62,686 nt of DNA from Candidatus Falkowbacteria bacterium (GTDB lineage: Bacteria; Patescibacteriota; Patescibacteriia; UBA11705; JABHMO01), in the NCBI GenBank assembly GCA_016214755.1, contig JACRNX010000030.1, positions 1-62,686 on the forward strand, given 5' to 3'. Both the position numbers and the translations under genes were made by a program. The notes beneath the pieces are model-generated. The model did not search any database and was not told the origin of the DNA. It saw only the letters and a program-made list of their open reading frames with translations. Positions 6,294 to 56,322 of the stretch are shown here, in pieces (position 1 is the first letter of the stretch; each line of letters starts with the position of its first letter).

Positions 6294-6334
6294 ATAAGAA
6301 AATAAGAAATTAAGAAAATAAGAAAACAAATGTT

Positions 6335-6484
6335 GCTACAAATTACCCTTCGACGGGTTCGACAAGCTCACCGCAGGCAAGCTCAGGGCAAGCTCATCAC
6401 TACGAATGTTACAAATGAAAATTTAATTTTTCCGTCTCAAAAATCCGTACATCCGTACATCCGTACATAATCCGTAATCCGTAT
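6335..6484 (+). repeat. About 150-bp composite repeat; an inverted copy lies at 51235..51376
   Basis: Hand alignment of this segment with the reverse complement of 51235..51376 is near-identical across GCTACAAATTACCCTTCGACGGGTTCGACAAGCTCACCGCAGGCAAGCTCAGGGCAAGCTCA.. and the following ..AATCCGTAATCCGTAT words. Confidence 0.8.
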
Positions 6485-11466: not shown

Positions 11467-11621
11467 AATTTTATTTTAGAGAGGATAGGGATTAGTAATC
11501 CGTAACTTGTAATTGGTAATTTGAAAATTAAAAATTAAAAATTCATTGAAAATTGAGAATTGAAAATTTATCTCGTCCTCATCTGTATATCTGTAAAAAT
11601 CAGTACATCTTGTATTATGTA

Positions 11622-17762: not shown

Positions 17763-17992
17763 AATAAAAATTAAAAAGTAAAAAGTAAAAATGAAAAATT
17801 ACAATTAAAAAGAAAAAATGGGAAATTCAGAATTTCTTTTTTATTTAGTTCGATTAACGATAATATGACAGAGCGATTAATAATTGTCAAATTTTGTCAA
17901 AAGATTCCTCCATTCCGCTCCGCTTCAGTCGGAATGACAAAAGTGTAAACAATGTTGAACTTTCTAATACTTGAATCTTAAATCTTGAATCT

Positions 17993-25134: not shown

Positions 25135-25163
25135 TTGAAGTTGTTCTAAAAGTGTGATATGAT
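25135..25163 (+). promoter_or_regulatory. Promoter TTGAAG-17 nt-TATGAT (TGn extended -10) for lepB
   Basis: -35 at 25135-25140 and -10 at 25158-25163, preceded by TGA. An 80-nt word hairpin (25168-25241) lies in the leader. Confidence 0.5.
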
Positions 25164-25247
25164 GTTTAAAAGTAAAAATGAAAAATGAAAAAGTAAAAAG
25201 TGAAGCGGTTTTTCCTTTTTCATTTTCAATTTTTACTTTTTAACCTT

Positions 25248-25847
25248 ATGCCCTTTGTCACCCGTTATTCAGAGCCAAAATTAACGCCCGCCCAAAAAGC
25301 CATTCATTTTGTTTGGGATTTGTTGAAAGTGGTCTGTGTTTCCCTAGCCATCATCATTCCCGTGCGCTATTTTTTGATTCAACCGTTTTACGTTAAAGGC
25401 GCGTCAATGGAGCCATCTTTTTTTGACCATGAATATTTGATTATTGATGAAATAGGTTACCGGTTCGGCGAGCCGAAACGCGGCGATATTGTTGTCTTTA
25501 AATATCCAAAAGACCCGTCGCTGTATTTTATTAAAAGAATCATCGGTTTGCCGGGAGAAACCGTGGAAATCGCTGACAGCAAGGTTTATATTCATCCAGC
25601 GGAGCCGGGCGCGCCTAAGTTTATTTTAGACGAGGAAAATTATTTGTCGTCGGAGGTTAATACTTTCGGAAATAAAACCTGGGTTCTCGGCGCGGACGAT
25701 TATTACGTGCTCGGCGATAATCGCGAGTCCAGTTTGGATTCGCGGACATTCGGCCCGGTTTTTCGCGAACTTATTGTCGGCAAGGTTTGGTTTCGCGGCT
25801 GGCCAGTCGCGCGGGTTGGGTTGTTTCCGTCGGTCAAATATGAATAA
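25248..25847 (+). CDS. lepB: Signal peptidase I
   Basis: S26 motifs: VKGASMEPSF (Ser), YFIKRIIGLPGE (Lys), VLGDNRESSLDSR. The start is at the ATG at 25248 because the upstream codons of the track ORF are the hairpin arm. Confidence 0.9.
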   Translation: MPFVTRYSEPKLTPAQKAIHFVWDLLKVVCVSLAIIIPVRYFLIQPFYVKGASMEPSFFDHEYLIIDEIGYRFGEPKRGDIVVFKYPKDPSLYFIKRIIGLPGETVEIADSKVYIHPAEPGAPKFILDEENYLSSEVNTFGNKTWVLGADDYYVLGDNRESSLDSRTFGPVFRELIVGKVWFRGWPVARVGLFPSVKYE

Positions 25848-25867
25848 GTTAAAAGTTAAAACTGAAA

Positions 25868-26245
25868 ATGGAAAACGAAAAGGAAAAATTTAAAACCGAA
25901 CTAAAGCGTCGAATTTATACATGGATTCTTCGCCTTATTAAATTTTTAGATAGTTCGCCAAAAGATACCATAACTTATCGGGTTGTCGATCAATTATTTA
26001 GAAGCGGCGGCAGTATTGGCGCGAATTATATTGAAGCTCAAGCATCAAGTTCCAAAAAGGATTTTGTTAATTTTCTACATCATTCTCTTAAGTCTGCAAA
26101 TGAATCAAAGTTTTGGTTGGCGATTCTTAGAGATACCAAACGCGGAGATGCGGAGAAAATTAATTTGCTTCTTGACGAACTTATTGAAATTGCCAATATT
26201 TTAGGCGCCAGTATCTTAACCGTTAAAGGCAAAAGAAAGTTTTAG
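25868..26245 (+). CDS. Four-helix-bundle protein (23S rRNA intervening-sequence protein / Avd-like family)
   Basis: ..RSGGSIGANYIEAQASSSKKDFVNFLHHSLKSANESKFWL.. matches the family signature (s-I-x-a-N-I-a-E...f..fl..a.gS..E). The size of 125 aa is typical. Confidence 0.85.
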   Translation: MENEKEKFKTELKRRIYTWILRLIKFLDSSPKDTITYRVVDQLFRSGGSIGANYIEAQASSSKKDFVNFLHHSLKSANESKFWLAILRDTKRGDAEKINLLLDELIEIANILGASILTVKGKRKF

Positions 26246-26290
26246 ATTGTCAATTTTCGTTTTTCATTTTTACTTTTTAATTTTATTTTT

Positions 26291-31018: not shown

Positions 31019-34000
31019 ATGTTTGCGCGATTGAAAAAAGATTCAAGATTCTTGATAGCCGTGGTTGGCGCGGTGATTATTTTCAGTTTGTTCGCGTTCA
31101 GCGCGCTGGACATTGTCCATGCGCAGGGAACGCCGGAAGAGGGGCTGGCGCTGACTGGCACGGCGGCTGGACTGCAAGCCGGACAAGACCTCCGCGTAAT
31201 CATCGGCAACATCATCAAAATTATTCTGGGATTTTTAGGCGTGCTCGCTTTATGCATTGTTCTTTACGCTGGTTTTTTGTACATGACTTCTGGCGGCGAT
31301 CAAGAGAAAGTGCAGAAAGCGCGGCGGTGGCTGGTGAACGGCGCGATCGGTTTGGTCATTATTTTTTCCGCTTACGCCATTACTTCGTTCATCATCAATA
31401 AACTGAAAACGGCGGTCAGCGGCGAGGAAGCGTCAATTGCCGGCGGCGGAGGAGAGGGTGGACTGGGCATCGGCGGCATCATGGTGTTCACCGCCGGGCC
31501 GATCACGCCCAACACGCCGGCGGCCATCAATTATCCGGTCAAAGTATTTTTTAACAAAGGAGTGGATTCGAAAACAATAAATAAAGATAATGTCCAAATA
31601 ATTAAAAAGGGCGCTAAGGGCAAAGTGGTAAAAACATTAGCGCCGATTGAGGTGATTGAAAAAGGCGGCCAGGGCGCGGACAGTTTAAGCAAGATTCTCG
31701 TTAGCGACGACCAGTTCACGGGCTGGGATGTCTGTTTAACCGATACTTCTTCCGAGAGCACCAAAAAAATATCCGAGGGATACACGCCGATGTCAATGAT
31801 TTTTGATATTAGTGAATTAAAAGGTAAGTTGCCGTCTTCAGCAACGTATAAATTTGAAAACAAAAATTCGCCGGGCGGAAGATTCACGATTAGCTGCGGT
31901 GACAAAAATAATCCGGCGAAAAAAATCATAAAAGAAAAATGGGCCACGTCAGATAAACCTTATACCCAAAAAGTGAAAAATTCTTTAGAACTGCCTAAGG
32001 AATGTTTCAACAATGTCGCTGACAATCTGTTGTATATTCAGTGGAAGAGAGCGGGCGGCGCTTGCATTAAATTTGATTACATGGCGCTGGAAATGGCGTA
32101 TGAAGATTACACTGGCGCCGAGTCCGCGGTCAGCGGCGGTTTTAACGTCAGCGGTTCAACCGTGAGATTCCTGCCAGCTGATGATTGCAAAGATCCTGCT
32201 TGCAAAGGACAAAAATGTTTTGAAAAAAATACTGATTACAAAGTAGTTTTAAAGCCAAATGTCATTAAATCAAACACTGGCATTGGTTTGTCTTGCGCCG
32301 TTGGTAGTGTCTGCCTGCATGAATTTTCGACTAACGATGTCTGCGACGTCACCGCGCCGGCTGTTTCTTTCATCGAGCCGTGGAATGGCGCGAAAGTCAG
32401 CCAGGACGCGGATGTTGATGTAACAGTGAAGGCGATTGATGACGGCGGAGTGGATTACATTGATTTTTTGGTGGACAGCGTGTTTCAGGATAAAGCGACG
32501 CCGGCCAGCGGTAAAAACGAGCAAGAATTTTACGGCTATTTTTCGTGGAATACCGAGGATATTGTTTTAGATCCAGTGACGAAAAAAGCGGTTAAAAAAT
32601 TAAAAGCAGAAGCCGAGGACTTGGACAACCATTTGGCGAGCAAGGAAATTGAGGTAACGGTTTTGCCGGCATATTGTTTTGACAAAGAGGGCGCGATTAT
32701 ATGTGATAAAGACGGCACGCATCCTGAATGCGGCAAGTGTGATGGATCTGATTGCGTGAAAGATGATGATTGCGCTGGCGTCTGCAATAAAAAGTGTGTT
32801 GACGCAGAAGCGAAGCAATGCAAAGTTAATGCTGATTGCGCGTCCGGCGTGGCGTGTAAAGGCACTTGCGAGACATTGCCGGTTATCACCAATGTCAGTC
32901 CAGATATAGCCGGCGCGGGAAATTATGTAACGATTTTTGGTAAAGGATTTTTGTCATATAAAGAAGGAGTAAGCCAAGCGTTTTTCACTGGCGCGGCCGG
33001 AGGATATTTGGAAGCAAAGATTGTTAATTGCGTGGCAGGCAAGCCGGCCTGGTCATATAATCAAATAATCGTAAAAGTGCCTGAACTGGCTGGCACTGGC
33101 CCAATTAAAATAATAAATTCAAGCGGAAAGGAAGATGATACACAGGACGAGGATGGCTGGCAGGGCGAGTTTGAGTTCGACGCGAAAATAAAATATCCGG
33201 GTTTGTGCGCGGTCCAATTACAGAGTTGTACGCCGTCAAATATTGTTTCATGCGACGAAGGCGCGGTCGGCGATTCAGTCAAAGCAATAGGAATAAATTT
33301 CGGGCATGAGATGGCTGATTATGACATGATTTATTTCGGCAGCGCGCCGTTCGGGCAAGGCGCGGGCTTTGATTGGAAGGATAAGGAAATAAAAGGAATC
33401 CAAATACCAATAGTTAATCCTGCTAGTTATGGTGTGACTGTGGCCAAAGAGGATTCGAAGGATATTAATAAAAAAATTTACAGCAATCCGGTTTATTTTC
33501 ATGTTATTCCAGCCGCCAATCTGCCGAAGATTGATAAAGTCAGTCCAATGCCCGCGCCGTTTGGCCAGATGGTAACGATTAGCGGGCAATATTTTGGAGC
33601 AAACGTCGGTCATGTTGAATTTAGGCGATACATTAACGGCCAGCCGTATGATTGGGTCGCGGGTTTGGCCTGCGCCAGTGGAAGCTGGTCAGACAGTGAA
33701 ATCATTATTAAAGTGCCGAAAGAAATCGCCAATACTATTGCCAAAATCGAAGGCGCGGACGCTTTTAGCAAGGATTATCAAATTATTGTTTATAACTCGA
33801 AAGGGTTGGCCAGCAAGCCGGTTGATTTTGAAATTAACAACAAGGCGCCGGGGCCGGGCTTGTGTTCGATCAGTCCAAACAATGGGCCAGTCGGGACGAA
33901 ATTTAATTTATCCGGTGAAAATTTTGGCGAGTCAAAAGATTATTACATAAAATTTCCTGCGCCTGACAAAAAAAATGTTAATGTCACTGCTTTCAAAACA

Positions 34001-37000
34001 TGGGGAGAAAAACTGATTGAAAACGCGGCCGTGCCGGCTGGCGCGATTTCCGGCGCTGTGTTTTTGAGTTCAAACGCCGCGGACGTGGATATTGACAGCA
34101 ATAGTTTGAACTTTAGCGTCGGCAGTTGCAAAAAGGACTCTTGCGACGAAGGATTGACTTGCTGTCCAACTGGTATTTGTCAGACAAAATGCGAAGCAGA
34201 AGTGGAATATTCGCCATCAGAATATATGTGGTTAGTCAGCACTGGTCCCTTACCGATTTTGCCGCAGGTGTTGGAGCGAAGTTGCATCAAAGGCGTGTAT
34301 TCGCAATCGCCATCGCCATTCAAATCAACGGAAGACGCGTGTCCCAATGGTTTGATCTCCGCCACTTTCAATACGGCGATGAAAAAAGATAGTTTGAATA
34401 ATAATATCGAAGTGCGGCGCTGTTTTCTCAAAGATGGTGGCAAATGCGATTTCAGTATTTGTAAGAAAGGAGAAAAATTGGGAGACATAATTTGCGCCGG
34501 CGGCGAGGTTAAATGTCTGAAAAACGGCACGTGCGTTGCCAAAAGCGTCAGTCAAATAACGGCCAATGATTTTAGCGAGTCAAATTTGTCTATTAGTTGC
34601 AAAACGCCGGCCGGCGCGGATTGTTCTGTCGGCGCGAAGGACTGCCAATGTGTCAAAGGTTCGCTAGTTTCGCAGTTCAATTTATTTGACGCGCTGTCAG
34701 AATTAGCGGCCGGAGAAGTTCCGTTGATAAAGTCGGAAGACGACAAAGGAAAAATTATTCCTTATCAACTATTCGAAAATACTTGGTATCAGGTAATTAT
34801 CAAAGGCGGAACCATGAATGACGAGAATCAGTTCGAGGGCGGAGTCGTCTCGTCGGACGGAAAATCAATGGCTAGCGATTATGCCTGGACGTTCAAAACG
34901 AAAAATGAAAAATGCGTTCCTGATAATTTACTGTTGAAGCCGCTTATCGGTTTAATCAGCGATTTATACGGCATGCAAAAGTATATTGTTTCAGGACAAT
35001 ATCAATGTCAGGAAATCGCGCTTAACAATGAAAAATGGGAGTGGGGAGCGCAGGAGAGTTATAAAGAGAAAATTAAATTCAGCGGATATGGATGCGTTAA
35101 TGGAATTGAAGGGCAAATTTGTCCAGCCAACACGAACGATAAACGGCCGGACATTGGGTTTTACGGGTTGTTTACTGAAAAAGCGTCCACATTAAATTTA
35201 GAAACGCCGCTTGGTGAACCAGCGATTATTTTTGCGGACGCGGTGCCGACAGTTGATTCATTCATGAAAACCGCTTTTGACAAAATGCATAAAGAAGGCG
35301 GACTGGAAGTTAAATTCGCGGCGCCAAAAGTGATTTCTTATTATCCAAATTGCCAATCAGCTTGCATTAACAGCGAGCTCGGCGCGCATTTCAGCGCTCA
35401 AATGGACGCGGCTAGTTTGACGCCAAATAGCGTTAAACTTTATTCCTGCGCCAGCGCTGATTGCATTAATTTGACGTCAGTAGCGTTAACGTCGGGAGAA
35501 ATTGATTATCAATGGACAGCGCCTGACGTGACAAATAAAAGTCAGATAAGCAATTTAAAAGTCAATCCGACAAATGATTTGTCATCCAATACTTTTTATC
35601 GAATGGTAATCACAAATGGCGTTCAAAGTTCAAGCTTGAAACCGCTGGCGGGCTTGAATTATACAATTGCGAACGCGCCCAAAAGCGATTGCGCTGATTG
35701 GAAAGATAATGACGCTGATAATGGCATTGATGTCAGCGGCGGTTATATATACAAAGGCAACGATAAAAAAATATTAGATTTCGTTTGCGGTTGCTATAAT
35801 ACATCTGCGACAGGTGAACCAGCGCAGAAATTCGTCTCGTATAATAAAGTTGACGCTAAAGTGGCTTGTCCGACGGGAGTAAGTTTTTCTTGTTTTAACA
35901 TCAAGGAATCAATCATTACCGACCCGGTGGATTTGAAAAAAATTGTCGAGGATTATAATTATTTCAGCCCAGACAGCCAGTGCGCGAGCGAAGCGGATTT
36001 TGAAATCGGCAAGTCGGGGCAGTACGACGCGTTCAGTTGGGTGTTCAAAACCAAAGCGTCTTCGGAAAAATGCGAGATTGACAAAGTCGATGTCGTGCCA
36101 GTTAGTTACACGACCGAAAAGCAAGGCGAAAAGATTGAATATTGGTCGAATCCATATTCAGCGCCTGATGAATGTTCGGATAAAGGACAGCTTTTAGACC
36201 CGTTTGATTATGCGTGGAAGTGGGATAGCACAGCCAAAGTCATTGTTAACAATATTGCGATCCCTGCAATAGCTGAAATTACTAACACGAAAATAATGGA
36301 CGTACCTGAATATTGCACAGAGAATTGTTTGGCAAAAGGCGGCACGCCCGCTGGTTCTGTTTGTGGCGACGGCGCAGTCGGCTCTGGCGAAGAGTGCGAT
36401 GATAAAAATATCGTGAACGGAGATGGCTGTTCGGATAAATGTCTATTAGAACCGTTTAAAAATTGCACTGCCGATCAATTAAAAAATAAAGCAACGGGTT
36501 GTTGCGGCAACGGCACGCCAAATGAAGCGATTACAAATATTTACGGAAAAACATATAACGAAGAATGCGACGCGGGTTGCGAATACAAAGACGGGAGCGG
36601 TAAGGCCTGCGCGCCGTCCGCGGACAAACCAGAATGTGTCTGCGTATCCAAAGAATCATATTGTTCAAATGGCTGCTTAAATATTGGCACGGCGGCTGGT
36701 TTTGTCTGCGGTAACAGTAAAGTCGAAGCCGGCGAAGATAAAGATGATGGAAATAATAAAGATGGCGACGGCGTGAGTTCGATTTGTTTGAATGAAGGCG
36801 CGAAGTATAAAACAGGAGAGAAAGCGGCGTTATGCGGTGACGGTAAAATTGATTACGGCGAAGAATGCGAGGCGATTGCGAAGACAGCAGGCGGTTCAAT
36901 ATCATTAGATAATAATCCATATTGCAATGAAAAATGCTTATGGCAGGGATTTCCTGCTTGCGGAAAATGCGAAAAGAAGGTCGTTGATCCAGCGACAGGT

Positions 37001-39928
37001 AAGGAAACAGTTACAGCATGTTTACCGACAGATCCAGCTTGCGGCTGTTATAAATGTTGCGGCAACGCGCAGTTGGAGGATTATGATAATACGGATAAAG
37101 ATGACAATATAAATACGGATTTTGATGAAGAATGCGAAGCGACAGCGTTGTCTTGCGTGAAAAAGACAAAGACAGCGGACGGGAAAGAGAAGATCGAGTC
37201 GTGTGATTATTTGAAGGAGACGAATTGCGTCTGCGAGTTAAAATTTCCTGAATGGTGCAGTCCAAAATGCTTGAATCTGGGCTCGTCGTATAAATATGAT
37301 TCGTATTGCGGTGATGGATATGTTGGCAATGAAAAGCTTGTTAGTGAAAAGCCCGGCACTAAATACCTTTCCCTTGGCGAGGACGAACAATGCGAAGATG
37401 CCGGCTCAATGAGCGGCGCGCCATATCAAGTGGCGATAATAAAAGAAATAATGGATTTTTTCGCGGTGGATTCTGCGAACAAACCGATATTTTCATTCAA
37501 CGCCGCAACAAAATTTGTCGAAGGCGCGACGAAAATTATTGCGACAGCGACAGTGGATAAAGACGGAAAAAGTGTCGGGAAAACAGGAGAAGCTGATTTA
37601 AAATTCCGCACGAACGACCCGGACGTGCTCGCGAAATTTTGCTCGACTGAATTATGGCTTTCCGCAGGCAGTTCGCCGACAGAGAATCAGCAGAATGTCT
37701 GCCGCAACGCGCTGTTGTCATTTAATTTTGACAAACAATTAGACACGGCAAGCGCCAGCGTCGTGCTGTACAAAGTCGTTGGTAGTAATTCTGAACCGGT
37801 TGAATCGTCTTTCGCGGCCACGAACGTCGGCGGCAAGACGCATATCATTGTTACGCCCAAGTCGCTTTTGGATGCAACGAAAGATTATAAAGTTAAAATG
37901 TTCAATATAAAAAATGTCTGCGGATTTTATTTCTCGCCGTGGACGTTAAATTTCAAGACAGGAAGCGCTGTCTGCAAGCTCGATAAAATTAAAATCGAAC
38001 CAGCGGAAGAATTTGCGTTCGCGCCGAATCAAATTCATCTATTCCAAGCGTTGGCGATGAGCGGCGAGGAGGCGATAAACGAGGCAGTAGGTCTTTATGA
38101 GTGGACTTGGACATGGACGGCGGACGACACGACGATTGTCAGCGCTCCAGTTGCTTGCGCTTTTCCTCAAAATAGTAATGTGTGTGCATCGGGAACAGGG
38201 GTTGATAGTCCGACTGTCAATGTGACAAACCAAGCAAAGAACGGAACGGCGACGATTTTCGCTGAAACAAAAATCACGAAAGATGTTAATGTTGATGCGA
38301 CGGATGAAAATGCGAAAAGCACGGTAGGAGAAACAACTTCCGGCAGCGCCAAACTACAAGTTCTGATTTGTGAGAATTTATGGCAGCCGACAACATTGCC
38401 GGCGAATTGGGATACTTGGAAAATTACCAGTACAAATTTATCTGAGCCGGTTTCAACGCATGTTTACGAGAAAAATTACAACATCGGCTTGTTGTACTGC
38501 CGCGATTTCGGCCAGCCAAATAATAAAACCGACGACTTGCCGAAGGTGAAAATTATAACTATGGGCGGCTGTCAAAACGGAATTGATGACGATATGGACG
38601 GAAAAATAGACGCACTCGAGACGAAAATATTTACGGACAAGGTTAATATATCAATTCAGTCAAAAGATGTAGGGATGTCTTTCAGTAGTGAACCAGTAAA
38701 TTTTGTAAAGCAGGGAAAAACAACAGCAATAACTTTAAAGTTCACGTTGACTAAGCCAGTTCAGAATTTATTTACATTGAATATAGAATTTTTTAATAAT
38801 GACACCTCGATAGGTAGCAAGAATTTAATTGGAATTAACAATAATATTCCGAAATATTTTCCTTTTGACCAATTTCTTAATTATGGAAATGTGGCATTTA
38901 AAGTTATAGTGAAGGAAGAGAATAGCATTATTACTACTACAATGGGATTTTTAGAAAATAATGATTCTGATCCTAAGTGCAAGACCAAGGACGACAGTGA
39001 AATCGCAGTAGGAAATTTATTGACAGAATATTTTTTGACGCGCGACGAGACAGAAACAGATAATTCAACTGATGTTATCGCTCTCCGCATCTACAAAAAT
39101 CCAGAATTTTTGGCGCCGTCGGTTTGGTACCAAAAATACGCGCCGAATCCAGCGGACACGACCAGCAGTTTGTCTCTCGACTGCCAAAAAGACGAGTTTG
39201 GAGAATTTTGCTATTCAGCGGCCGTGGACGGGCCGTCGGTTTATGTCGGCGCGAGCAATCTGGCGGGAGGTACTACTCCGGGAATTGATATTTATAACAA
39301 CATCCATATTTTAAGCCATTCGCAAAGCGCGAACGAGGCGACATTAAATATCTTTAATCAAATAGTGGCGTATTTGCAGTTCAATTTTAATCTTGGCGGT
39401 TTGTCGAAGGTCTCTTTAATTCGCGACACGCAGAGGATTCAAGATATGGTGTGGACGCGGCTTGTTATTGACCAATACAAACAAAAGCATAATGGCGAGG
39501 CGCCGCAACTTGAATCAGGCACTTATGAACGGGGATTGTCGTTTAGTGTTTGGCCATCTTGGCAGAACGAATTAGGCGGCGCGTTGAAGCAGACATTGCC
39601 GGTTGATCCGTTGAATCATTTCAAATGGGAAAAGCCGAGCTTTGTTGGCGCTGGAATCGCCTGCCTTGGTTCTGTTAAATGTCCGGACGCGGCTTTCCAG
39701 TGCGTTATTCCCAATAAATATTGCGTTAAATGTCCAACCGGATTTGACGCGCTGACCTGCTATGACAGCAACACGCAAAAGTTTTTCAATTATTATTCAA
39801 ATCCAGACGAGCATCCGGTTTACTCTTATCAAGCTGACCCAGAAAATGCAAAAAACAAATCAGCGTATAAATTGGACTTTATGCTGGAGATAACGAGTAA
39901 GATATATAAAATAACGACGGGGTTTTAG
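31019..39928 (+). CDS. Giant (2969 aa) cell-surface protein: signal peptide, TrbC/VirB2-like two-helix domain, Ig-like and IPT/TIG domains, CGDG..EECD Cys-rich repeats
   Basis: Signal peptide ..ALDIVHA-QG. Pilin-like segment IIKIILGFLGVLALCIVLYAGFLYMTSGGDQEKVQKARRWLVNGAIGLVIIFSAYAI. IPT-like PVITNVSPDIAGAGNYVTIFGKGF, PKIDKVSPMPAPFGQMVTISGQYFG, PGLCSISPNNGPVGTKFNLSGENFG. Cys-rich repeat CGDGAVGSGEECDDKNIVNGDGCSDKC plus five related repeats. Confidence 0.9.
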   Translation: MFARLKKDSRFLIAVVGAVIIFSLFAFSALDIVHAQGTPEEGLALTGTAAGLQAGQDLRVIIGNIIKIILGFLGVLALCIVLYAGFLYMTSGGDQEKVQKARRWLVNGAIGLVIIFSAYAITSFIINKLKTAVSGEEASIAGGGGEGGLGIGGIMVFTAGPITPNTPAAINYPVKVFFNKGVDSKTINKDNVQIIKKGAKGKVVKTLAPIEVIEKGGQGADSLSKILVSDDQFTGWDVCLTDTSSESTKKISEGYTPMSMIFDISELKGKLPSSATYKFENKNSPGGRFTISCGDKNNPAKKIIKEKWATSDKPYTQKVKNSLELPKECFNNVADNLLYIQWKRAGGACIKFDYMALEMAYEDYTGAESAVSGGFNVSGSTVRFLPADDCKDPACKGQKCFEKNTDYKVVLKPNVIKSNTGIGLSCAVGSVCLHEFSTNDVCDVTAPAVSFIEPWNGAKVSQDADVDVTVKAIDDGGVDYIDFLVDSVFQDKATPASGKNEQEFYGYFSWNTEDIVLDPVTKKAVKKLKAEAEDLDNHLASKEIEVTVLPAYCFDKEGAIICDKDGTHPECGKCDGSDCVKDDDCAGVCNKKCVDAEAKQCKVNADCASGVACKGTCETLPVITNVSPDIAGAGNYVTIFGKGFLSYKEGVSQAFFTGAAGGYLEAKIVNCVAGKPAWSYNQIIVKVPELAGTGPIKIINSSGKEDDTQDEDGWQGEFEFDAKIKYPGLCAVQLQSCTPSNIVSCDEGAVGDSVKAIGINFGHEMADYDMIYFGSAPFGQGAGFDWKDKEIKGIQIPIVNPASYGVTVAKEDSKDINKKIYSNPVYFHVIPAANLPKIDKVSPMPAPFGQMVTISGQYFGANVGHVEFRRYINGQPYDWVAGLACASGSWSDSEIIIKVPKEIANTIAKIEGADAFSKDYQIIVYNSKGLASKPVDFEINNKAPGPGLCSISPNNGPVGTKFNLSGENFGESKDYYIKFPAPDKKNVNVTAFKTWGEKLIENAAVPAGAISGAVFLSSNAADVDIDSNSLNFSVGSCKKDSCDEGLTCCPTGICQTKCEAEVEYSPSEYMWLVSTGPLPILPQVLERSCIKGVYSQSPSPFKSTEDACPNGLISATFNTAMKKDSLNNNIEVRRCFLKDGGKCDFSICKKGEKLGDIICAGGEVKCLKNGTCVAKSVSQITANDFSESNLSISCKTPAGADCSVGAKDCQCVKGSLVSQFNLFDALSELAAGEVPLIKSEDDKGKIIPYQLFENTWYQVIIKGGTMNDENQFEGGVVSSDGKSMASDYAWTFKTKNEKCVPDNLLLKPLIGLISDLYGMQKYIVSGQYQCQEIALNNEKWEWGAQESYKEKIKFSGYGCVNGIEGQICPANTNDKRPDIGFYGLFTEKASTLNLETPLGEPAIIFADAVPTVDSFMKTAFDKMHKEGGLEVKFAAPKVISYYPNCQSACINSELGAHFSAQMDAASLTPNSVKLYSCASADCINLTSVALTSGEIDYQWTAPDVTNKSQISNLKVNPTNDLSSNTFYRMVITNGVQSSSLKPLAGLNYTIANAPKSDCADWKDNDADNGIDVSGGYIYKGNDKKILDFVCGCYNTSATGEPAQKFVSYNKVDAKVACPTGVSFSCFNIKESIITDPVDLKKIVEDYNYFSPDSQCASEADFEIGKSGQYDAFSWVFKTKASSEKCEIDKVDVVPVSYTTEKQGEKIEYWSNPYSAPDECSDKGQLLDPFDYAWKWDSTAKVIVNNIAIPAIAEITNTKIMDVPEYCTENCLAKGGTPAGSVCGDGAVGSGEECDDKNIVNGDGCSDKCLLEPFKNCTADQLKNKATGCCGNGTPNEAITNIYGKTYNEECDAGCEYKDGSGKACAPSADKPECVCVSKESYCSNGCLNIGTAAGFVCGNSKVEAGEDKDDGNNKDGDGVSSICLNEGAKYKTGEKAALCGDGKIDYGEECEAIAKTAGGSISLDNNPYCNEKCLWQGFPACGKCEKKVVDPATGKETVTACLPTDPACGCYKCCGNAQLEDYDNTDKDDNINTDFDEECEATALSCVKKTKTADGKEKIESCDYLKETNCVCELKFPEWCSPKCLNLGSSYKYDSYCGDGYVGNEKLVSEKPGTKYLSLGEDEQCEDAGSMSGAPYQVAIIKEIMDFFAVDSANKPIFSFNAATKFVEGATKIIATATVDKDGKSVGKTGEADLKFRTNDPDVLAKFCSTELWLSAGSSPTENQQNVCRNALLSFNFDKQLDTASASVVLYKVVGSNSEPVESSFAATNVGGKTHIIVTPKSLLDATKDYKVKMFNIKNVCGFYFSPWTLNFKTGSAVCKLDKIKIEPAEEFAFAPNQIHLFQALAMSGEEAINEAVGLYEWTWTWTADDTTIVSAPVACAFPQNSNVCASGTGVDSPTVNVTNQAKNGTATIFAETKITKDVNVDATDENAKSTVGETTSGSAKLQVLICENLWQPTTLPANWDTWKITSTNLSEPVSTHVYEKNYNIGLLYCRDFGQPNNKTDDLPKVKIITMGGCQNGIDDDMDGKIDALETKIFTDKVNISIQSKDVGMSFSSEPVNFVKQGKTTAITLKFTLTKPVQNLFTLNIEFFNNDTSIGSKNLIGINNNIPKYFPFDQFLNYGNVAFKVIVKEENSIITTTMGFLENNDSDPKCKTKDDSEIAVGNLLTEYFLTRDETETDNSTDVIALRIYKNPEFLAPSVWYQKYAPNPADTTSSLSLDCQKDEFGEFCYSAAVDGPSVYVGASNLAGGTTPGIDIYNNIHILSHSQSANEATLNIFNQIVAYLQFNFNLGGLSKVSLIRDTQRIQDMVWTRLVIDQYKQKHNGEAPQLESGTYERGLSFSVWPSWQNELGGALKQTLPVDPLNHFKWEKPSFVGAGIACLGSVKCPDAAFQCVIPNKYCVKCPTGFDALTCYDSNTQKFFNYYSNPDEHPVYSYQADPENAKNKSAYKLDFMLEITSKIYKITTGF

Positions 39929-47260: not shown

Positions 47261-49327
47261 ATGGTTTACGCGGCAAATAAAATCATCCAAATTCACAAGC
47301 GCGACGGCAGTATCGTTGAATTTGACCAAGCGAAAATTTCCAGCGCCATTTTCAAAGCCATGCGCGCCTGCGGCGAGCCGGACGCGGAGAAAGCCGAGCA
47401 GTTGTCGGACGTTATTGTCGAAAAACTGAACAAAAAATTCCATCAGCGGTCCATTCCGGCAGTAGAGGAAATCCAGGACATTGTCGAGGAGGTTTTGATT
47501 GAAAGCCGGCTGATTAAAGTCGCCAAATCGTATATCATCTATCGCGACCAGCACGCTAAGATGCGCGACATTCAATCCATGATCAATTCCGACGAATTGA
47601 TGGATAACTATCTGAAGCAATTGGACTGGAAGGTTAAAGAAAACAGCAACATGGATTATTCATTGCAGGGGCTGAATAACTACGTGGCGTCGAATTTGAG
47701 CACGAATTATTGGTTGAACAAGATTTATTCGCCGGATATCAAACAGGCGCATCTTTCCGGCGATTTTCATCTGCATGATTTACAGCTCTTGGCGCCGTAT
47801 TGCTGCGGCTGGGATTTCAAGGATTTGTTGTTGCGCGGATTTGGGGGAGTGCGCGGCAAAGTCGAGAGCAAGCCGCCGAAACATTTGATGACCGCTTTAA
47901 GTCAGTTAGTTAATTTTTTCTATACTTTGCAGGGCGAAGCGGCCGGCGCGCAGGCCGTGTCGAATTTGGATACTTATCTCGCGCCGTTCATTCGCGCCGA
48001 CGAGCTGGATTTCAAAGGGGTAAAACAGCAGGTTCAGATGTTTCTGTTCAACATGAACGTGCCGACGCGGGTGGGGTTTCAATCGCCTTTTACCAATGTT
48101 ACTTTGGACTTGTTTCCGCCGGCCGACGTGGCGGAGGAGGCGGCGATCGTGGGCGGCGAGCCGCAGGCGGAAAAGTACGGCGATTTTCAGAAAGAAATGG
48201 ACATGTTCAACCAAGCGTTCATTGAAATAATGATGGAAGGCGACCGCAAAGGCCGAGTGCTGAGTTGGCCGATTCCGACGTACAATATCGCGAAAAATTG
48301 GGATTGGGATTCAGCGATAATCAGTCGGATTATGGAAATGACCGCCAAATACGGCATTCCGTATTTTTCCAATTTCGTGAACAGCGACATGCGGCCGGAA
48401 GACGCGCGCAGCATGTGCTGCCGCCTGCGGCTCGACAACCGCGAATTGCGCAAGCGCGGCGGCGGTTTGTTCGGCGCCAATCCATTGACTGGCTCAATTG
48501 GTGTAGTGACCATTAATATGGCCCGGCTGGGGTATTTGGCGAAAACAAAAGAAGAATTTTTTGAACGATTGGCCGGACTGATGGATTTAGCCAAAACCAG
48601 TTTGAAGATTAAGCGCAACGCCCTGGAGAAATTCACTGACGGCGGATTGTATCCGTATTCACGGCACTATTTAAGCGGAATAAAAGAACGTTTCGACGAA
48701 TATTGGAAAAATCATTTTAACACCATTGGTTTGAACGGCGTTAATGAGGCCTGCTTGAATCTGCTTGGCGTTGAACACAGCATCGCTTCAGTTGAAGGCC
48801 GTAAATTCGCCGGTCAGGTTTTGGATTTTATGCGCGAGCGCATGATGGATTATCAAAATGAAACGAACGAGCTGTTTAATCTGGAAGCAACGCCGGCCGA
48901 AGGGACGTCTTACCGTTTCGCCCGGCTTGATAAGGAAAAATTTTCCGATATAATCGTCGCCAACGAGCAGGCCTGGCAAGAAAAAAAAGCGGCGCCGTAT
49001 TACACCAATTCAACGCATTTGCCGGTCGGTTACACGGATGATATTTTCGAGGCATTGCGCTTACAAGATGATTTACAGACGAAGTACACTGGCGGCACCG
49101 TCTTGCATGGTTTTATCGGGGAAAAACTGCCGTCAGCGGACAGCACGAAATTGCTGGTGAAAAAAATCGCGGAAAATTTTCATTTGCCGTATTTCACCAT
49201 CACGCCGACTTTCAGCGTCTGCCCGATTCACGGCTATCTCGAAGGCGAGCACGAGTATTGCCCTTTCTGCGATGAAGAAATGGGCTACGCGGAAGAAGCG
49301 GCGAAATTGGAAAAATTAGGTAATTAA
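47261..49327 (+). CDS. nrdD: Anaerobic ribonucleoside-triphosphate reductase, large N-terminal piece (lacks the glycyl-radical loop)
   Basis: ATP-cone (IHKRDGSIVEFDQAKISSAIFKA) and a class III RNR core. It ends after the zinc ribbon CPIHG..x..CPFC, and no RVxGY motif occurs before the stop. Confidence 0.9.
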   Translation: MVYAANKIIQIHKRDGSIVEFDQAKISSAIFKAMRACGEPDAEKAEQLSDVIVEKLNKKFHQRSIPAVEEIQDIVEEVLIESRLIKVAKSYIIYRDQHAKMRDIQSMINSDELMDNYLKQLDWKVKENSNMDYSLQGLNNYVASNLSTNYWLNKIYSPDIKQAHLSGDFHLHDLQLLAPYCCGWDFKDLLLRGFGGVRGKVESKPPKHLMTALSQLVNFFYTLQGEAAGAQAVSNLDTYLAPFIRADELDFKGVKQQVQMFLFNMNVPTRVGFQSPFTNVTLDLFPPADVAEEAAIVGGEPQAEKYGDFQKEMDMFNQAFIEIMMEGDRKGRVLSWPIPTYNIAKNWDWDSAIISRIMEMTAKYGIPYFSNFVNSDMRPEDARSMCCRLRLDNRELRKRGGGLFGANPLTGSIGVVTINMARLGYLAKTKEEFFERLAGLMDLAKTSLKIKRNALEKFTDGGLYPYSRHYLSGIKERFDEYWKNHFNTIGLNGVNEACLNLLGVEHSIASVEGRKFAGQVLDFMRERMMDYQNETNELFNLEATPAEGTSYRFARLDKEKFSDIIVANEQAWQEKKAAPYYTNSTHLPVGYTDDIFEALRLQDDLQTKYTGGTVLHGFIGEKLPSADSTKLLVKKIAENFHLPYFTITPTFSVCPIHGYLEGEHEYCPFCDEEMGYAEEAAKLEKLGN

Positions 49328-49534
49328 GAAATTAAGAAAACAAGAAATTAAGAAATTAAGTAATTGGTAATTTGGAAATTAAAAATTAAAAATGAAAAAC
49401 GAAAAGGATAAAGGAAAAACCGATATTTTAGGCGCGAGTGTTTTAACTGTTAATGACAAAAAGAGCGTTTTAAGTTTTTAATTTCCCTTTTTACTTTTTC
49501 ATTTTCAACTTTTAATTTAAAGGAACAACATCTT
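49328..49534 (+). repeat. 207-nt intervening cassette in nrdD: internally deleted four-helix-bundle gene (mini-ORF 49392..49481) between inverted word arms
   Basis: The mini-ORF MKNEKDKGKTDILGASVLTVNDKKSVLSF matches the N- and C-termini of 25868..26245 (MENEKEKFKT / NILGASILTVKGKRKF). The arms AATTAAAAATTAAAAATGAAAAACGAAAAGG and CCCTTTTTACTTTTTCATTTTCAACTTTTAATT are inverted. Confidence 0.75.
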
Positions 49535-49681
49535 ATGACCTTGCAAAAAATCGAGCGGCAAAAATGTGAAATCTATTCGCGCGTGGTCGGCTACTTAAGC
49601 CCGATCCATCGTTGGAATGACGGCAAAAAAGCGGAATTTGGCGATCGAAAAACGTATGATAAGATGCTTAGTAAGAATTAA
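49535..49681 (+). CDS. nrdD: NrdD C-terminal glycyl-radical fragment (48 aa, separate ORF)
   Basis: MTLQKIERQKCEIYSRVVGYLSPIHRWNDGKKAEFGDRKTY.. carries the class III RNR glycyl-radical signature R-V-x-G-Y...W-N-x-G-K..E. AAGGA lies 10 nt upstream. Same frame as 47261..49327. Absent from the ORF track (<60 aa). Confidence 0.75.
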   Translation: MTLQKIERQKCEIYSRVVGYLSPIHRWNDGKKAEFGDRKTYDKMLSKN

Positions 49682-49764
49682 GAGGAGGTTATTAGTGAGT
49701 AGTGAGTAGTTGGTAGTGGGTAGTGTTTTGATATAATTACCACCTACAACCTACCACCTACAAT

Positions 49765-50451
49765 ATGCTGATTGGCGGACTGCAGAAAACAACCTTGCTT
49801 GATTATCCGAACAAAGTGGCAGCGACGGTTTTCACCATTGGGTGCAACTTTCGCTGCTCTTTTTGTCATAATCCGGATATTGTTAAAGGCATTACCCGAG
49901 TGATTCCCGTGCCCCGCGTTTTGCGTTTTTTGCAGAATCGCAAGAAATTGCTCGACGCGGTTTGCCTTTCCGGCGGCGAGCCGACTATCCAGCGCGGCCT
50001 CGTCTCGTTTATCAAAAAAATTAAAGCCCTCGGCTATTTGGTGAAATTGGACACTAACGGCGCGCGGCCGGACGTGATTGAAAAATTGCTGGCGGAAAAA
50101 TTAGTTGATTATATCGCCATGGACATCAAGGCCAAATGGGAGGATTATCAAAAAGTCACTTGCCGGATTTGGGATTTGGACGCGGTGAAAAAAAGCGCTA
50201 TAATGTTAATGAAAAGCGAAATTCCTTATGAATTCCGCTCCACGGTTTTGCCCGTGCTCCACCGCGAGGCGGATCTGCTGGCGATAGCCGAGCAAATCAA
50301 GGGCGCGGCGCGATATTATCTTCAGCCGTTTAAAAGCGAAAGCAAACTGGTCAATGATAATTTCGTCGGCGAAAAAACGTATTCCAAAAAGCAGTTGAAC
50401 GATTTCATTTCGAAAATTAAAGGATGGTTTTCCGTCTGCGAAGTGCGGTGA
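49765..50451 (+). CDS. nrdG: Anaerobic ribonucleotide reductase activating protein (radical SAM)
   Basis: CNFRCSFCHN CxxxCxxC cluster motif, LSGGEPT, and its position after nrdD. Confidence 0.9.
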   Translation: MLIGGLQKTTLLDYPNKVAATVFTIGCNFRCSFCHNPDIVKGITRVIPVPRVLRFLQNRKKLLDAVCLSGGEPTIQRGLVSFIKKIKALGYLVKLDTNGARPDVIEKLLAEKLVDYIAMDIKAKWEDYQKVTCRIWDLDAVKKSAIMLMKSEIPYEFRSTVLPVLHREADLLAIAEQIKGAARYYLQPFKSESKLVNDNFVGEKTYSKKQLNDFISKIKGWFSVCEVR

Positions 50452-50570
50452 AAAAATATGGATTACGGATTATGTACGGATATACGGATTACGGATTTGT
50501 CCAAATGTACGGATTAACATACATACGAAAAAACGAAACAGGTTGTAGGTTGTAGGTGATAGGGGGTAAT

Positions 50571-51196: not shown

Positions 51197-51234
51197 TGTT
51201 GACACGGCGAAAGGGCGGTGTTTTAATTTTAAAT

Positions 51235-51376
51235 ATACGGATTACGGATTATGTACGGATATACGGATTATTTGAGACAGGAAAATTAAATTTTATTTGT
51301 AGCATTTGTAGTGGTGAGCTTGCCCTGAGCTTGCCTGCGGTGAGCTTGTCGAACCCGTCGAAGGGTAATTTGTAGC
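51235..51376 (-). repeat. Inverted copy of the 6335..6484 composite repeat
   Basis: Its reverse complement aligns with 6335..6484 over about 140 nt with few differences. Confidence 0.8.
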
Positions 51377-53867: not shown

Positions 53868-54950
53868 ATGCGTTGGTTTGTCGGAGTGATTATCGCAGTT
53901 GTCATCGCCGGAGCCGTGGCGGCGGCGAGTTATTTTATTTTTCACGAAGAAGTTGATTTTATCGTTGATAAAACATTGAAAACCGCTGGTTTGATTCCAT
54001 TCGGCGATTGGGCGCGCGGTCAGGAAAAGGAAGCGGAAATATTGAACGCCAAGGAAGCGCTGGAGTCGCGGATCAGCTTGCTGGCGGTCGGCGACATAAT
54101 GCTCTCGCGCGTCGTTGGCCAGAAAATGGTTGCGTACAAGGATTATCATTTTCCGTTTTTGAAAGTCCAGGATTTGATTGGCCAGGCGGACATCAGCTTC
54201 GGTAATTTGGAAAGCCCGATTATAAAAGGAGCGCCGGTTAAAACCGGCTCGTTCAATTTTCGCGCCGACCCGGAAGCGGCCGAGAGTTTGTCTTTCGCCG
54301 GCTTCGATGTGTTAAGTTTGGCGAACAATCATATTTTAAATCAAGGACAGGATGGACTGCAAAAAACGTTTTATTATCTAAAAGAACAAAAAATTGATTA
54401 TTGCGGCGCGGTGAACAATTCCGGCAAACTTCAATTCGATACGCTTCTGCCGACGATTAGAGAGGTCAAAGGCGCAAAGATTGGCTTTCTGTGTTACGGT
54501 TATGGTCCGGAAAATTACGCGGCCAAGCAAAAAAGCGCGGGCATTATCCTTATGGACGAAGAACAACTTGCTCGCGACATTCAAAATGCAAAAGAACAAA
54601 ATTTAGTTGATTTTCTGGTTGTCTCAATGCACGATGGCGTTGAATATCAAAAAGAGCCGTCTGCGCGTCAAAAATCGTTTGCCCATCGAGCGATTGATCT
54701 CGGCGCTGACCTTGTCGTCGGCCATCACGCGCATGTCGTTCAGGAAATCGAACAATATAAAGGCAAATACATTTTTTACGGTTTAGGCAATTTTGTTTTT
54801 GACCAGATGTGGTCCGAAGAAACGAGAAAGGGATTGGCGGTGAAGTTTATTATTAAAAAGGAATCGGCCGGCGTGTTTAAAGTTGAAACAGTTGAACAAT
54901 ATCCTGTCATAATCGAGGATTATGGCCAGCCAAGTTTAGTCAGAAAGTAG
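53868..54950 (+). CDS. CapA/PGA-capsule-synthesis-like metallophosphatase family protein
   Basis: TM anchor, then LLAVGDIMLSR, GNLESP, LSLANNH, VSMHDG, VGHHAHV. Confidence 0.85.
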   Translation: MRWFVGVIIAVVIAGAVAAASYFIFHEEVDFIVDKTLKTAGLIPFGDWARGQEKEAEILNAKEALESRISLLAVGDIMLSRVVGQKMVAYKDYHFPFLKVQDLIGQADISFGNLESPIIKGAPVKTGSFNFRADPEAAESLSFAGFDVLSLANNHILNQGQDGLQKTFYYLKEQKIDYCGAVNNSGKLQFDTLLPTIREVKGAKIGFLCYGYGPENYAAKQKSAGIILMDEEQLARDIQNAKEQNLVDFLVVSMHDGVEYQKEPSARQKSFAHRAIDLGADLVVGHHAHVVQEIEQYKGKYIFYGLGNFVFDQMWSEETRKGLAVKFIIKKESAGVFKVETVEQYPVIIEDYGQPSLVRK

Positions 54951-54981
54951 AAAATAGAAAGTAGAAAATAGAATTAATGAA

Positions 54982-55332
54982 ATGGGTACAAAATCATTTA
55001 AAGAATTAATTGTTTGGCAAAAGTCGCGAGATTTAGCAATTGCTGTTTATCAATTTACAGAAAAATTTCCACGTTCAGAATTATATGGATTGTCAAGTCA
55101 GATGAGACGAGCCGCTGTTTCAATTTCCTCGAATATCGCGGAAAGTTATCGCCGTTTTCATTTTAAAGAGAAAAGACATTTATTGACAATTGCTTTTGGT
55201 TCTGGTTCGGAGTTAGAAAGTCAAATTGAGATTTCGAAAATATTGTTCTCAAATATAGATTACGATCGCGCGGAGCGAACTTTAGACGAGGTAATGAAAC
55301 TCCTCAATAATTTTTTGAATAATAATAAATAA
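54982..55332 (+). CDS. Four-helix-bundle protein (23S rRNA intervening-sequence protein / Avd-like family)
   Basis: ..LIVWQKSRDLAIAVYQFTEKFP..QMRRAAVSISSNIAESYRRF..GSGSELESQIEISK.. is a canonical signature of the family. Confidence 0.88.
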   Translation: MGTKSFKELIVWQKSRDLAIAVYQFTEKFPRSELYGLSSQMRRAAVSISSNIAESYRRFHFKEKRHLLTIAFGSGSELESQIEISKILFSNIDYDRAERTLDEVMKLLNNFLNNNK

Positions 55333-55380
55333 AATTCTACATTCTACATTCTACATTCTATTTTCTATTTTCTAAATTCT

Positions 55381-56322
55381 ATGTTTATTAAACCAAAAGT
55401 ATTAGTCACCGGCGGCGCCGGGTTCATCGGCTCGCACCAAGTAGACGCGCTCATTGACGCCGATTATCGAGTGGCGGTGGTTGACAATTTGTCAACCGGC
55501 GATCGAAATAATTTGAATCCGCAGGCAGAATTTTACGAATTAGACATCCGTGAAAGCAAGCTGGCGGAAGTTTTTGAAAAAGAAAAGCCGGACTTTGTTT
55601 TTCATTTCGCAGGGCAAATCAGCGTCAATCAGTCGGTGGAAGACCCGGTTTACGACGCGGACGTCAACATCATCGGTTCGTTGAATCTGCTGGAGCAATG
55701 CGTGAAATATAAAGTCAAAAAAATTATTTTTTCTTCCACCGGCGGCGCGCTTTACGGTGAAGCGGACGTCGTGCCGACGGCAGAGGACTATCCCTGCCAG
55801 CCGATTTCACCGTATGGCATCGCTAAATTGTCGGTGGAAAACTATTTGCGATTTTATTTTGAACAATTCGGTTTGGCCTGCGGCATAATGCGCTACGCCA
55901 ATGTCTATGGCCCGCGCCAGAACTCAAAGGGCGAAGCCGGCGTGATCGCGATTTTCACGGAAAAAATGCTCAATCGTTTAACGCCAATCATCCACGGCGA
56001 CGGCCATCAAACGCGCGATTATGTTTTTGTCGAAGACGTCGTCAGCGCCAACATGGCGATGCTGGAAAGCGAGGCCGTGGATTTTTACAATGTTGGCACT
56101 AGCCGGCAGACGACGGTGAACGAGGTTTTTAATTTCATCAAAAAGGAATTAGCGTCGGACGCCGAGCCGCGCTATGACCCTAACGCGTTTGCCGGCCAGG
56201 CGGTCAGCTGTTTGAGTTTTGAAAAAATTCAGCGCGCGCTCGGCTGGCGGCCGCTCTTTGATGTTGAGGAAGGAATCAAGAAGACGGTGGAGTGGTTTAG
56301 GGATAAAGAAAATAGAAAATAG
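55381..56322 (+). CDS. NAD-dependent sugar epimerase/dehydratase (UDP-glucose 4-epimerase-like)
   Basis: VLVTGGAGFIGSH Rossmann motif and the catalytic SPYGIAKL (YxxxK). Confidence 0.88.
   Translation: MFIKPKVLVTGGAGFIGSHQVDALIDADYRVAVVDNLSTGDRNNLNPQAEFYELDIRESKLAEVFEKEKPDFVFHFAGQISVNQSVEDPVYDADVNIIGSLNLLEQCVKYKVKKIIFSSTGGALYGEADVVPTAEDYPCQPISPYGIAKLSVENYLRFYFEQFGLACGIMRYANVYGPRQNSKGEAGVIAIFTEKMLNRLTPIIHGDGHQTRDYVFVEDVVSANMAMLESEAVDFYNVGTSRQTTVNEVFNFIKKELASDAEPRYDPNAFAGQAVSCLSFEKIQRALGWRPLFDVEEGIKKTVEWFRDKENRK

Follow-up and report, generated by a model that had tools for sequence, protein, structure and literature searches.

A probable two-subunit class III ribonucleotide reductase in a Candidatus Falkowbacteria bacterium, with the glycyl-radical loop encoded by a separate and conserved small gene

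When nrdD, which encodes class III (anaerobic) ribonucleotide reductase (RNR), ends before its glycyl-radical loop and the loop is found on a short open reading frame (ORF) further downstream, is the gene broken, or is it two genes? The question is raised by a locus of a Candidatus Falkowbacteria bacterium (assembly GCA_016214755.1), in contig JACRNX010000030.1, positions 1-62,686 of the forward strand; this whole stretch of 62,686 nucleotides (nt) is referred to as the window, and all coordinates are those of the window. The answer proposed here is that 47261-50451 is, with high probability, an operon of three genes, nrdD-N / nrdD-C / nrdG, which encode a class III RNR that is naturally made of two subunits. 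Its parts are:

47261..49327, plus strand: nrdD-N, class III RNR large subunit of 688 residues, recognised by Pfam and NCBIfam profile matches
49328..49534, plus strand: intergenic spacer of 207 nt with six stop codons in the nrdD frame, as read from the sequence
49535..49681, plus strand: nrdD-C, stand-alone glycyl-radical subunit of 48 residues with Cys11 and the loop RVVG19Y, recognised by Pfam NRDD
49765..50451, plus strand: nrdG, radical-SAM activase of 228 residues with the cluster motif CNFRCSFC, recognised by TIGR02495 and Pfam Radical_SAM

The 688-residue product matches Pfam NRDD (PF13597) with 589.7 bits (cut-off 26.2) over profile positions 1-532 of 562, as well as Pfam ATP-cone, and NCBIfam NF006126 (PRK08270) with 1037.7 bits (cut-off 548) over positions 3-652 of 684; an exact-sequence look-up of this protein returned no record. 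It contains, in order, the ATP-cone, the catalytic barrel, the finger loop SMCCRLRL (C386/C387), the zinc ribbon, the motif DEEMGY and a tail of 12 residues, and it terminates in ...CPIHGYLEGEHEYCPFCDEEMGYAEEAAKLEKLGN (the same terminus as ...FSVCPIHGYLEGEHEYCPFCDEEMGYAEEAAKLEKLGN) immediately before the stop codon. Both C386 and C387 are invariant in an alignment of 40 homologues (A3) and, from their role in the family, would be the catalytic cysteines that receive the radical. Likewise, all four residues of the ribbon (C654-x2-H657...C667-x2-C670) are invariant in A3. In the NrdD of Thermotoga maritima (tmNrdD), zinc is held by CxxxH..CxxC and the ribbon comes after the last barrel strand and before the Gly loop (PMC4493059); by homology with tmNrdD all four ligands sit in the large piece, and therefore the ribbon is complete there. 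A motif search of the 688-residue ORF found no RVxGY, in agreement with an earlier reading of this DNA made from the letters alone (hereafter the original prediction), according to which the ORF stops at 49327, after the ribbon, and the radical signature lies on the 48-codon ORF.

The product of the latter starts with MTLQKIERQKCEIYSRVVGYLSPIHRWNDGKKAEF... (complete sequence MTLQKIERQKCEIYSRVVGYLSPIHRWNDGKKAEFGDRKTYDKMLSKN), is 72-88% identical to stand-alone orthologues, and has PF13597 as its sole Pfam match, at positions 531-562 of 562 (E 1.7e-9); its kinship with the C-termini of NrdD is thus confirmed. A profile search of NCBIfam gave no model specific for such small ORFs, and placed this one at positions 649-682 of 684 of PRK08270. 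Since the large piece covers positions 3-652 and the small one 649-682, the profile is continuous over the two pieces, no part of it being absent or present twice. The nrdG gene is intact, as had been claimed, with 203.1 bits against TIGR02495 NrdG2 (cut-off 131.15).

The break is far from peculiar to this genome. With the 48-residue product as query, a word-indexed search gave 60 matches, from Patescibacteria, Synergistales and others, and all 60 are stand-alone proteins of 38-85 residues with PF13597; in the source databases such ORFs are named 'anaerobic ribonucleoside-triphosphate reductase' or 'hypothetical protein'. An exhaustive HMMER search with the same piece, over 1.84 billion representatives, yielded 2560 hits at E<=1e-3, the best 150 being without exception stand-alone proteins (48-131 residues). 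Seen from the large piece, 118 of its best 120 homologues (67-89% identity) end shortly after CPxCDEE[MI]GY, without RVxGY, and just P0172 and P0177 are intact. In a survey of 80 loci from GTDB species representatives, nrdD is split at the same residue in 61, intact in 18 and truncated by the contig in one. The split is carried by Falkowbacteria, Kuenenbacteria, Parcubacteria, Woesearchaeota, Synergistia, Halanaerobiales and the cultured Orenia metallireducens (L056); the intact gene is found in Smithella/Syntrophales and other Deltaproteobacteria, in Coprothermobacter, in a member of the Syntrophomonadaceae and in one metagenome-assembled genome (MAG) of the Patescibacteria. At every split locus a single C piece, no more and no fewer, lies within 3 kb, and neither the window nor the surroundings of intact relatives yielded a further C-like ORF. 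In a neighbour-joining tree of the N pieces the intact forms make up one clade nested among the split ones, the tree being rooted at midpoint and the number of split or fusion events not being claimed from it. Judging by these loci, the split is old, and the two-piece arrangement is conserved in many bacteria and some archaea.

The order of the genes and the distances between them vary along the same loci. In Patescibacteria the order is nrdD-N, nrdD-C, nrdG; in eight loci (L056, L059, L075, L076, L078, L081, L083 and L088), which belong to Orenia metallireducens, Halanaerobiales, a Bacillota MAG and Synergistia, a complete nrdG stands between the two pieces of nrdD, the spacers measuring from a few nt up to tens of nt, and the pieces are therefore independent genes. 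Split loci have spacers as short as -38 nt, where the pieces overlap, and as long as +311 nt; overlaps between -20 and -38 nt occur among them. That of L005 (34-46 nt) is plain and AT-rich, that of L007 has 117 nt and that of L001, with 311 nt, bears other low-complexity arms, while the closest relative of the window (L089, N piece 89% identical) has an ordinary spacer of 56 nt. The three possible frame offsets occur 25, 23 and 14 times over 62 split loci. The spacer of the window had been described as frame-preserving: its 207 nt do keep both pieces in one frame, yet with such offsets this is a coincidence expected once in three times, and hence due to chance.

The two kinds of loci differ at the junction in a regular way. 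Intact relatives read CPxC-xxx-CEVYSRVVGY, whereas split relatives read CPxC-DEE[MI]GY, a variable tail and a stop, and then M...R-[QT]-[KRP]-CEVYSRVVGY; compared with intact relatives, the break falls three residues after the CxxC of the second zinc knuckle and one residue before a Cys, that is, in the linker from ribbon to Gly loop, where it had been expected. This Cys is kept in 191 of 194 stand-alone small proteins and also in 17 of the 18 intact GTDB relatives. The motif DEE[MI]GY follows CxxC in about 100 of the 120 N pieces, and R-x-[KRP]-C precedes EVYSRVVGY in the small proteins; together, DEE[MI]GY and R-x-K-C are a candidate subunit interface. Automatic alignment was of little help at this point, for MAFFT runs with the small proteins (A2) or with intact relatives (A4) misplaced the small proteins and superimposed the RVVGY of intact chains on DEEMGY. 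When the 97 residues of the junction region were searched against PDB sequences, only marginal matches (E ~0.6-0.9) were obtained, to the NrdD chains 8P23, 4COI and 4U3E, and these are to be taken for orientation only.

Codon comparison with L089 shows 21 synonymous-only against 6 replacement changes over the 48 codons of nrdD-C, 256 against 81 over the 688 codons of nrdD-N, and 73 against 53 over the 228 codons of nrdG. With relatives beyond L089 the synonymous rate (dS) is saturated and the replacement rate (dN) is 0.13-0.22; where dS is computable, dN/dS is 0.06-0.11. By this measure purifying selection acts on the small ORF no less strongly than on the large one, which excludes a decaying remnant. 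Two separately encoded polypeptides, co-conserved and selected, make up one complete NrdD profile, beside the gene of the activase.

How might such an enzyme work? The 48-residue polypeptide, carrying solely the loop RVVG19Y, would be translated from its own start codon, and NrdG would abstract a hydrogen atom from its Gly19. The small subunit would then sit in the mouth of the barrel, at the place of the covalently attached C-terminal loop of an ordinary NrdD, and hand the radical to a cysteine of the finger loop (C386/C387). On contact with oxygen the chain is cut at the glycine that carries the radical, and the radical is lost; a separate small subunit could then be replaced alone, and a detachable radical subunit of 5.6 kDa might spare the cell from remaking an enzyme of 79 kDa, a benefit that is speculative. 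That the radical loop acts in trans we infer because activases act on the exposed RVxGY loop and because GrcA, once activated, restores oxygen-cleaved pyruvate formate-lyase (PFL) (PMC8683613, PMC13450708). Among the explanations offered by the original prediction, the comparative data strongly support that of a class III RNR in two pieces whose radical module acts in trans.

One may accept a conserved split and still hold that the small protein is mainly regulatory or sacrificial, serving for example as a sensor of oxygen or as a titratable limit on RNR activity. Separate translation of the radical carrier would indeed permit independent control of its level, and the gene order does vary (N-C-G versus N-G-C). 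However, with a large piece devoid of any other radical source, the small piece is required for catalysis anyway; this option, improbable as an account of its own, refines the two-subunit explanation and does not replace it.

A second possibility, very unlikely, is that of a fresh pseudogene, in which a newly inserted cassette has put nrdD out of action, the 48-codon ORF being left over and still undecayed. To weigh it, the content of the spacer has to be considered, together with related elements of the window:

49318..49523, plus strand: window-specific block, a decayed IVP cassette, absent from L089 (pairwise alignment A1)
49311..49373, plus strand: purine-rich run with a period of 8 nt, (AAGAAATT)n-like, at the left cassette edge (direct-repeat families D1 and D2)
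49376..49420, plus strand: left inverted arm (inverted repeat I1)
49392..49481, plus strand: remnant ORF of 29 residues (MKNEKDKGKTDILGASVLTVNDKKSVLSF), the fused ends of a 23S_rRNA_IVP gene
49474..49518, plus strand: right inverted arm (inverted repeat I1)
49520..49524, plus strand: AAGGA, a Shine-Dalgarno (SD)-like motif in the sequence 10 nt before the ATG of nrdD-C, of doubtful significance
49706..49761, plus strand: arms-only low-complexity hairpin, GTAGTTGGTAGTGGGTAG / CTACAACCTACCACCTAC, between nrdD-C and nrdG (inverted repeat I12)
25868-26245: intact 23S_rRNA_IVP gene of 125 residues (PF05635, 65.6 bits)
54982-55332: second intact IVP gene (PF05635, 107.5 bits)

The spacer is collinear with the intact gene at 25868-26245 and its flanks in four segments, namely left arm, first ~9 codons (ATGAAAAACGAAAAGGA...), last ~16 codons (ATATTTTAGGCGCGAGTGTTTTAACTGTTAA...) and right arm, with an internal deletion of ~310 nt between the two coding segments. 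The arms measure 45 nt each and are 80% complementary, and the right one is 96.7% identical over 30 nt, on the reverse strand, to the arm 26254-26283 of the intact cassette. The 29-residue remnant has no Pfam match itself, its DNA being collinear with both ends of the PF05635 gene. The description of the gap as an internally deleted four-helix-bundle gene between inverted arms was therefore right: from these matches, the spacer is evidently a decayed copy of a 23S-rRNA-IVS-protein cassette (IVS, intervening sequence) resident in this genome. It lies between two protein-coding cistrons and not inside 23S rRNA, no rRNA being present in the window. Runs similar to the one at the left edge recur at 6295-6329 and 11509-11542. 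The cassette hairpin (-27.5 kcal/mol, z -1.87) is marginally more stable than shuffled sequence, and scans of the plus strand of the spacer for promoters and terminators found nothing convincing.

In alignment A1 the homology with L089 is lost at ~49317; it picks up again at 49524, which is 11 nt ahead of the small ORF's ATG. The block supplies the final three codons and the TAA stop of nrdD-N (KSKM-stop becoming KLGN-stop). Because L089 has a plain spacer of 56 nt and homology breaks exactly at the cassette edges, the cassette is a recent and private insertion or replacement in a pre-existing intergenic spacer; among the related loci fetched, just one has an IVP gene nearby. That the cassette is private to the lineage of the window, and that the gap holds six in-frame stops, would both suit a pseudogene. 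The break, however, predates the cassette, the two-ORF arrangement recurring in 61 of 80 related genomes with unrelated spacers; the original claim that the cassette split nrdD had thus reversed cause and effect. Moreover, the small ORF is under the purifying selection described above against a cassette-free relative, and nrdG is intact. The remnant itself is very probably inert and, by the same comparison, need not be removed for the locus to be read as two genes.

Equally unlikely is the removal or skipping of the gap, be it by an intron, by IVS-like excision followed by ligation, by ribosomal bypass or by frameshift, so as to give one full-length NrdD. The 207 nt are in frame and flanked by the 45-nt inverted repeat, and IVP cassettes in 23S rRNA are excised by RNase III (PMC11270868). 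On the other hand, the ends are not rejoined when RNase III cuts out an IVS, no Rfam match (group I intron or other RNA family) was obtained in the spacer region even at E<=1, and the whole stretch 49300-49560 does not fold more stably than shuffled sequence does (z +0.5). Above all, given the diversity of spacers, frames and gene orders described above, with overlapping pieces in some relatives and a whole nrdG between them in others, no mechanism acting in cis covers all cases; the RNA-level processing put forward in the original prediction is contradicted.

Less credible still is joining at the protein level, by a split intein or similar trans-splicing after translation. A nearly invariant Cys does stand right after the break, as would be expected of a +1 extein residue, and true inteins occur elsewhere in the N piece of some relatives (P0167, PF14890). 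Yet the tail of the N piece (3-50 variable residues) and the head of the C piece (median 14 residues) are much too short, and vary too much, to make up the halves of an intein, neither piece has an intein domain match, and the same Cys is present in nearly all the intact relatives. All three rivals are in effect excluded, namely the pseudogene, the intron or translational bypass, and splicing at the protein level. As for an assembly artefact, it would touch the cassette only and not the split.

Several points weigh against the two-subunit explanation. The association of the two polypeptides and the activation of the free peptide by NrdG are predictions, and so is the expression of the 48-codon ORF. 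Most of the genomes compared are MAGs. An AlphaFold2 model of the two pieces fused head to tail (A3) has a mean predicted local distance difference test (pLDDT) score of 73.9, with values below 50 for residues 675-736 (tail and C piece) and also for the finger loop 387-412; the C-terminal part of the input alignment was three sequences deep, and the model, which says nothing about docking, lends it no support in silico. The long AU-rich stem of the cassette could lower the expression of the small subunit in the lineage of the window. Finally, the small ORF had been credited with its own ribosome-binding site: AAGGA is present, but since just 5 of the 32 window ORFs of at least 150 residues have an SD-like motif within 22 nt upstream, it is weak evidence for such a site. 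The other ORF starts are mostly preceded by AU-rich or low-complexity sequence, which suggests that initiation is largely SD-independent in this Patescibacteria-like genome. L089 has no SD-like motif at the equivalent position, and translation of nrdD-C is probably independent of AAGGA.

The two-subunit enzyme can be set against systems already known. Canonical single-chain NrdD, as in Thermotoga maritima (PDB 4COI/4U3E) and phage T4, has the same order of ATP-cone, barrel, finger loop, zinc ribbon and RVxGY, together with a cognate radical-SAM activase (PMC4493059), and corresponds over the full PRK08270 profile to the two pieces taken jointly. Here, unlike there, the chain is broken three residues after CxxC, the Gly loop is a separate product of 45-60 residues, and the motifs DEE[MI]GY and R-x-[KRP]-C flank the break. 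GrcA (YfiD) is similarly a small stand-alone homologue of the C-terminal radical domain of a glycyl-radical enzyme (GRE) which acts in trans and presumably shares the activase. It belongs, however, to the PFL (Gly_radical) lineage and has 127 residues, whereas nrdD-C is of the NrdD lineage and has 48; furthermore, GrcA backs up a PFL endowed with its own radical domain, whereas here the small protein would be the only radical carrier. As the large subunit has no radical domain to be backed up, nrdD-C lacks the defining feature of GrcA and is not a spare part. According to a 2026 review, no class of GRE apart from the formate lyases is known to have spare-part proteins (PMC13450708).

Catalytic subunits made from two adjacent genes, whose products must assemble, are known in other RNR classes, namely NrdJa/NrdJb of Pseudomonas aeruginosa (class II) and NrdA-a/NrdA-b of the Aeromonas phage Aeh1 (class I); these and the GrcA analogue are treated in PMC9669993, PMC4520616 and PMC3653736. 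Both differ from the present case in RNR class and break point, the part split off here being the loop of the radical cofactor. In addition, Aeh1 NrdA is split by an inserted homing endonuclease gene, mobE, whereas no endonuclease is present here and the mobile-element remnant is secondary. That remnant is akin to the 23S rRNA IVP cassettes (PF05635), deriving from such a gene with long inverted arms like the two intact copies of the window; unlike them, it lies in an intergenic region of an mRNA and is internally deleted, with 29 codons left. The literature searched on split NrdD gave only phage nrdD with introns or inteins, split NrdJ and split Aeh1 NrdA; nowhere in it was a cellular NrdD found described as split at the Gly loop, which is not proof of novelty.

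A broader proposal, on balance favoured though held with clearly less assurance than the operon itself, is that of a large, apparently undescribed, cross-domain family of class III RNRs that would be obligately two-subunit, with the glycyl radical borne by a free peptide of ~5 kDa, activatable by NrdG, whose docking into a large subunit devoid of a radical would be reversible. The family would span most of the sampled Falkowbacteria/Kuenenbacteria/Parcubacteria-type Patescibacteria, Halanaerobiales/Orenia, Synergistia and Woesearchaeota.

Some further observations concern the relatives and the rest of the window. Four large-subunit homologues (P0079, P0086, P0116 and P0167) are ~1015 residues long and end in DEE.GY without a Gly loop; P0167 has the intein domain PF14890, and these homologues are regarded as both intein-interrupted and split. 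In L054 (MAG JAZDMY010000018.1, 4696-5401) the large ORF stops ~40 codons early, before the zinc ribbon, and is followed by a gap of 307 nt and then by the small ORF; it is possibly a genuine pseudogene or an assembly error. Directly after the stop of nrdD-C, 77 nt upstream of the ATG of nrdG, stands a strong SD-like GAGGAGG (49682-49688), and the hairpin at 49706-49761, which is not exceptional (-20.1 kcal/mol, z -0.69), is placed as though its insertion had separated nrdG from an old ribosome-binding site.

AU-rich inverted arms flank the intact IVP gene at 25868-26245 (cassette 25840-26290), to which, among intact copies, the remnant between the nrdD pieces is most closely related, and the ATG of the next gene (26291) abuts the right arm with no SD motif. 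The gene at 54982-55332 (cassette 54940-55380) has arms of a different family (GTAGAAAATAGAAAG... / ...TTCTACATTCTACATTC) and is flush with the start of the downstream gene at 55381. At 25160-25250 there is a solitary, near-perfect AU-rich hairpin of the arm family of the cassette 25840-26290, with no gene inside; it is far more stable than shuffled sequence (-27.4 kcal/mol, z -7.25, 0 of 200 shuffles as stable) and overlaps the predicted GTG start of the ORF 25200-25847, and arm-like runs resembling it occur at 6295-6329, 11509-11542 and 17765-17798. A low-complexity repeat family, TACGGAT/ATCCGTA, is found at 50455-50520, 6440-6480 and ~51230-51275, in intergenic positions, in opposite orientations and tens of kb apart. 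A single ORF of 2969 residues occupies 31019-39928 on the plus strand.

GREs are viewed as single chains, in which the C-terminal radical domain must leave the barrel to meet the activase and then return; how it swings out and back is an open mechanistic question. If the present explanation is true, this would be the first GRE with its sole radical domain encoded in trans, in effect a replaceable protein cofactor, and the idea of the 'spare part' would extend from pyruvate formate-lyase to ribonucleotide reduction. A separate radical peptide of 48 residues would make activation of the free peptide, docking, radical hand-over and exchange after oxygen damage directly testable. As regards the genome of the window, its IVP cassettes insert into the intergenic spacers of mRNAs and decay there. 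More generally, the split explains the truncated-looking NrdD of many Patescibacteria MAGs: the ORFs of 45-60 residues should be annotated as a subunit, not as fragments, and metabolic reconstructions should not count a 'truncated' nrdD among the pseudogenes.

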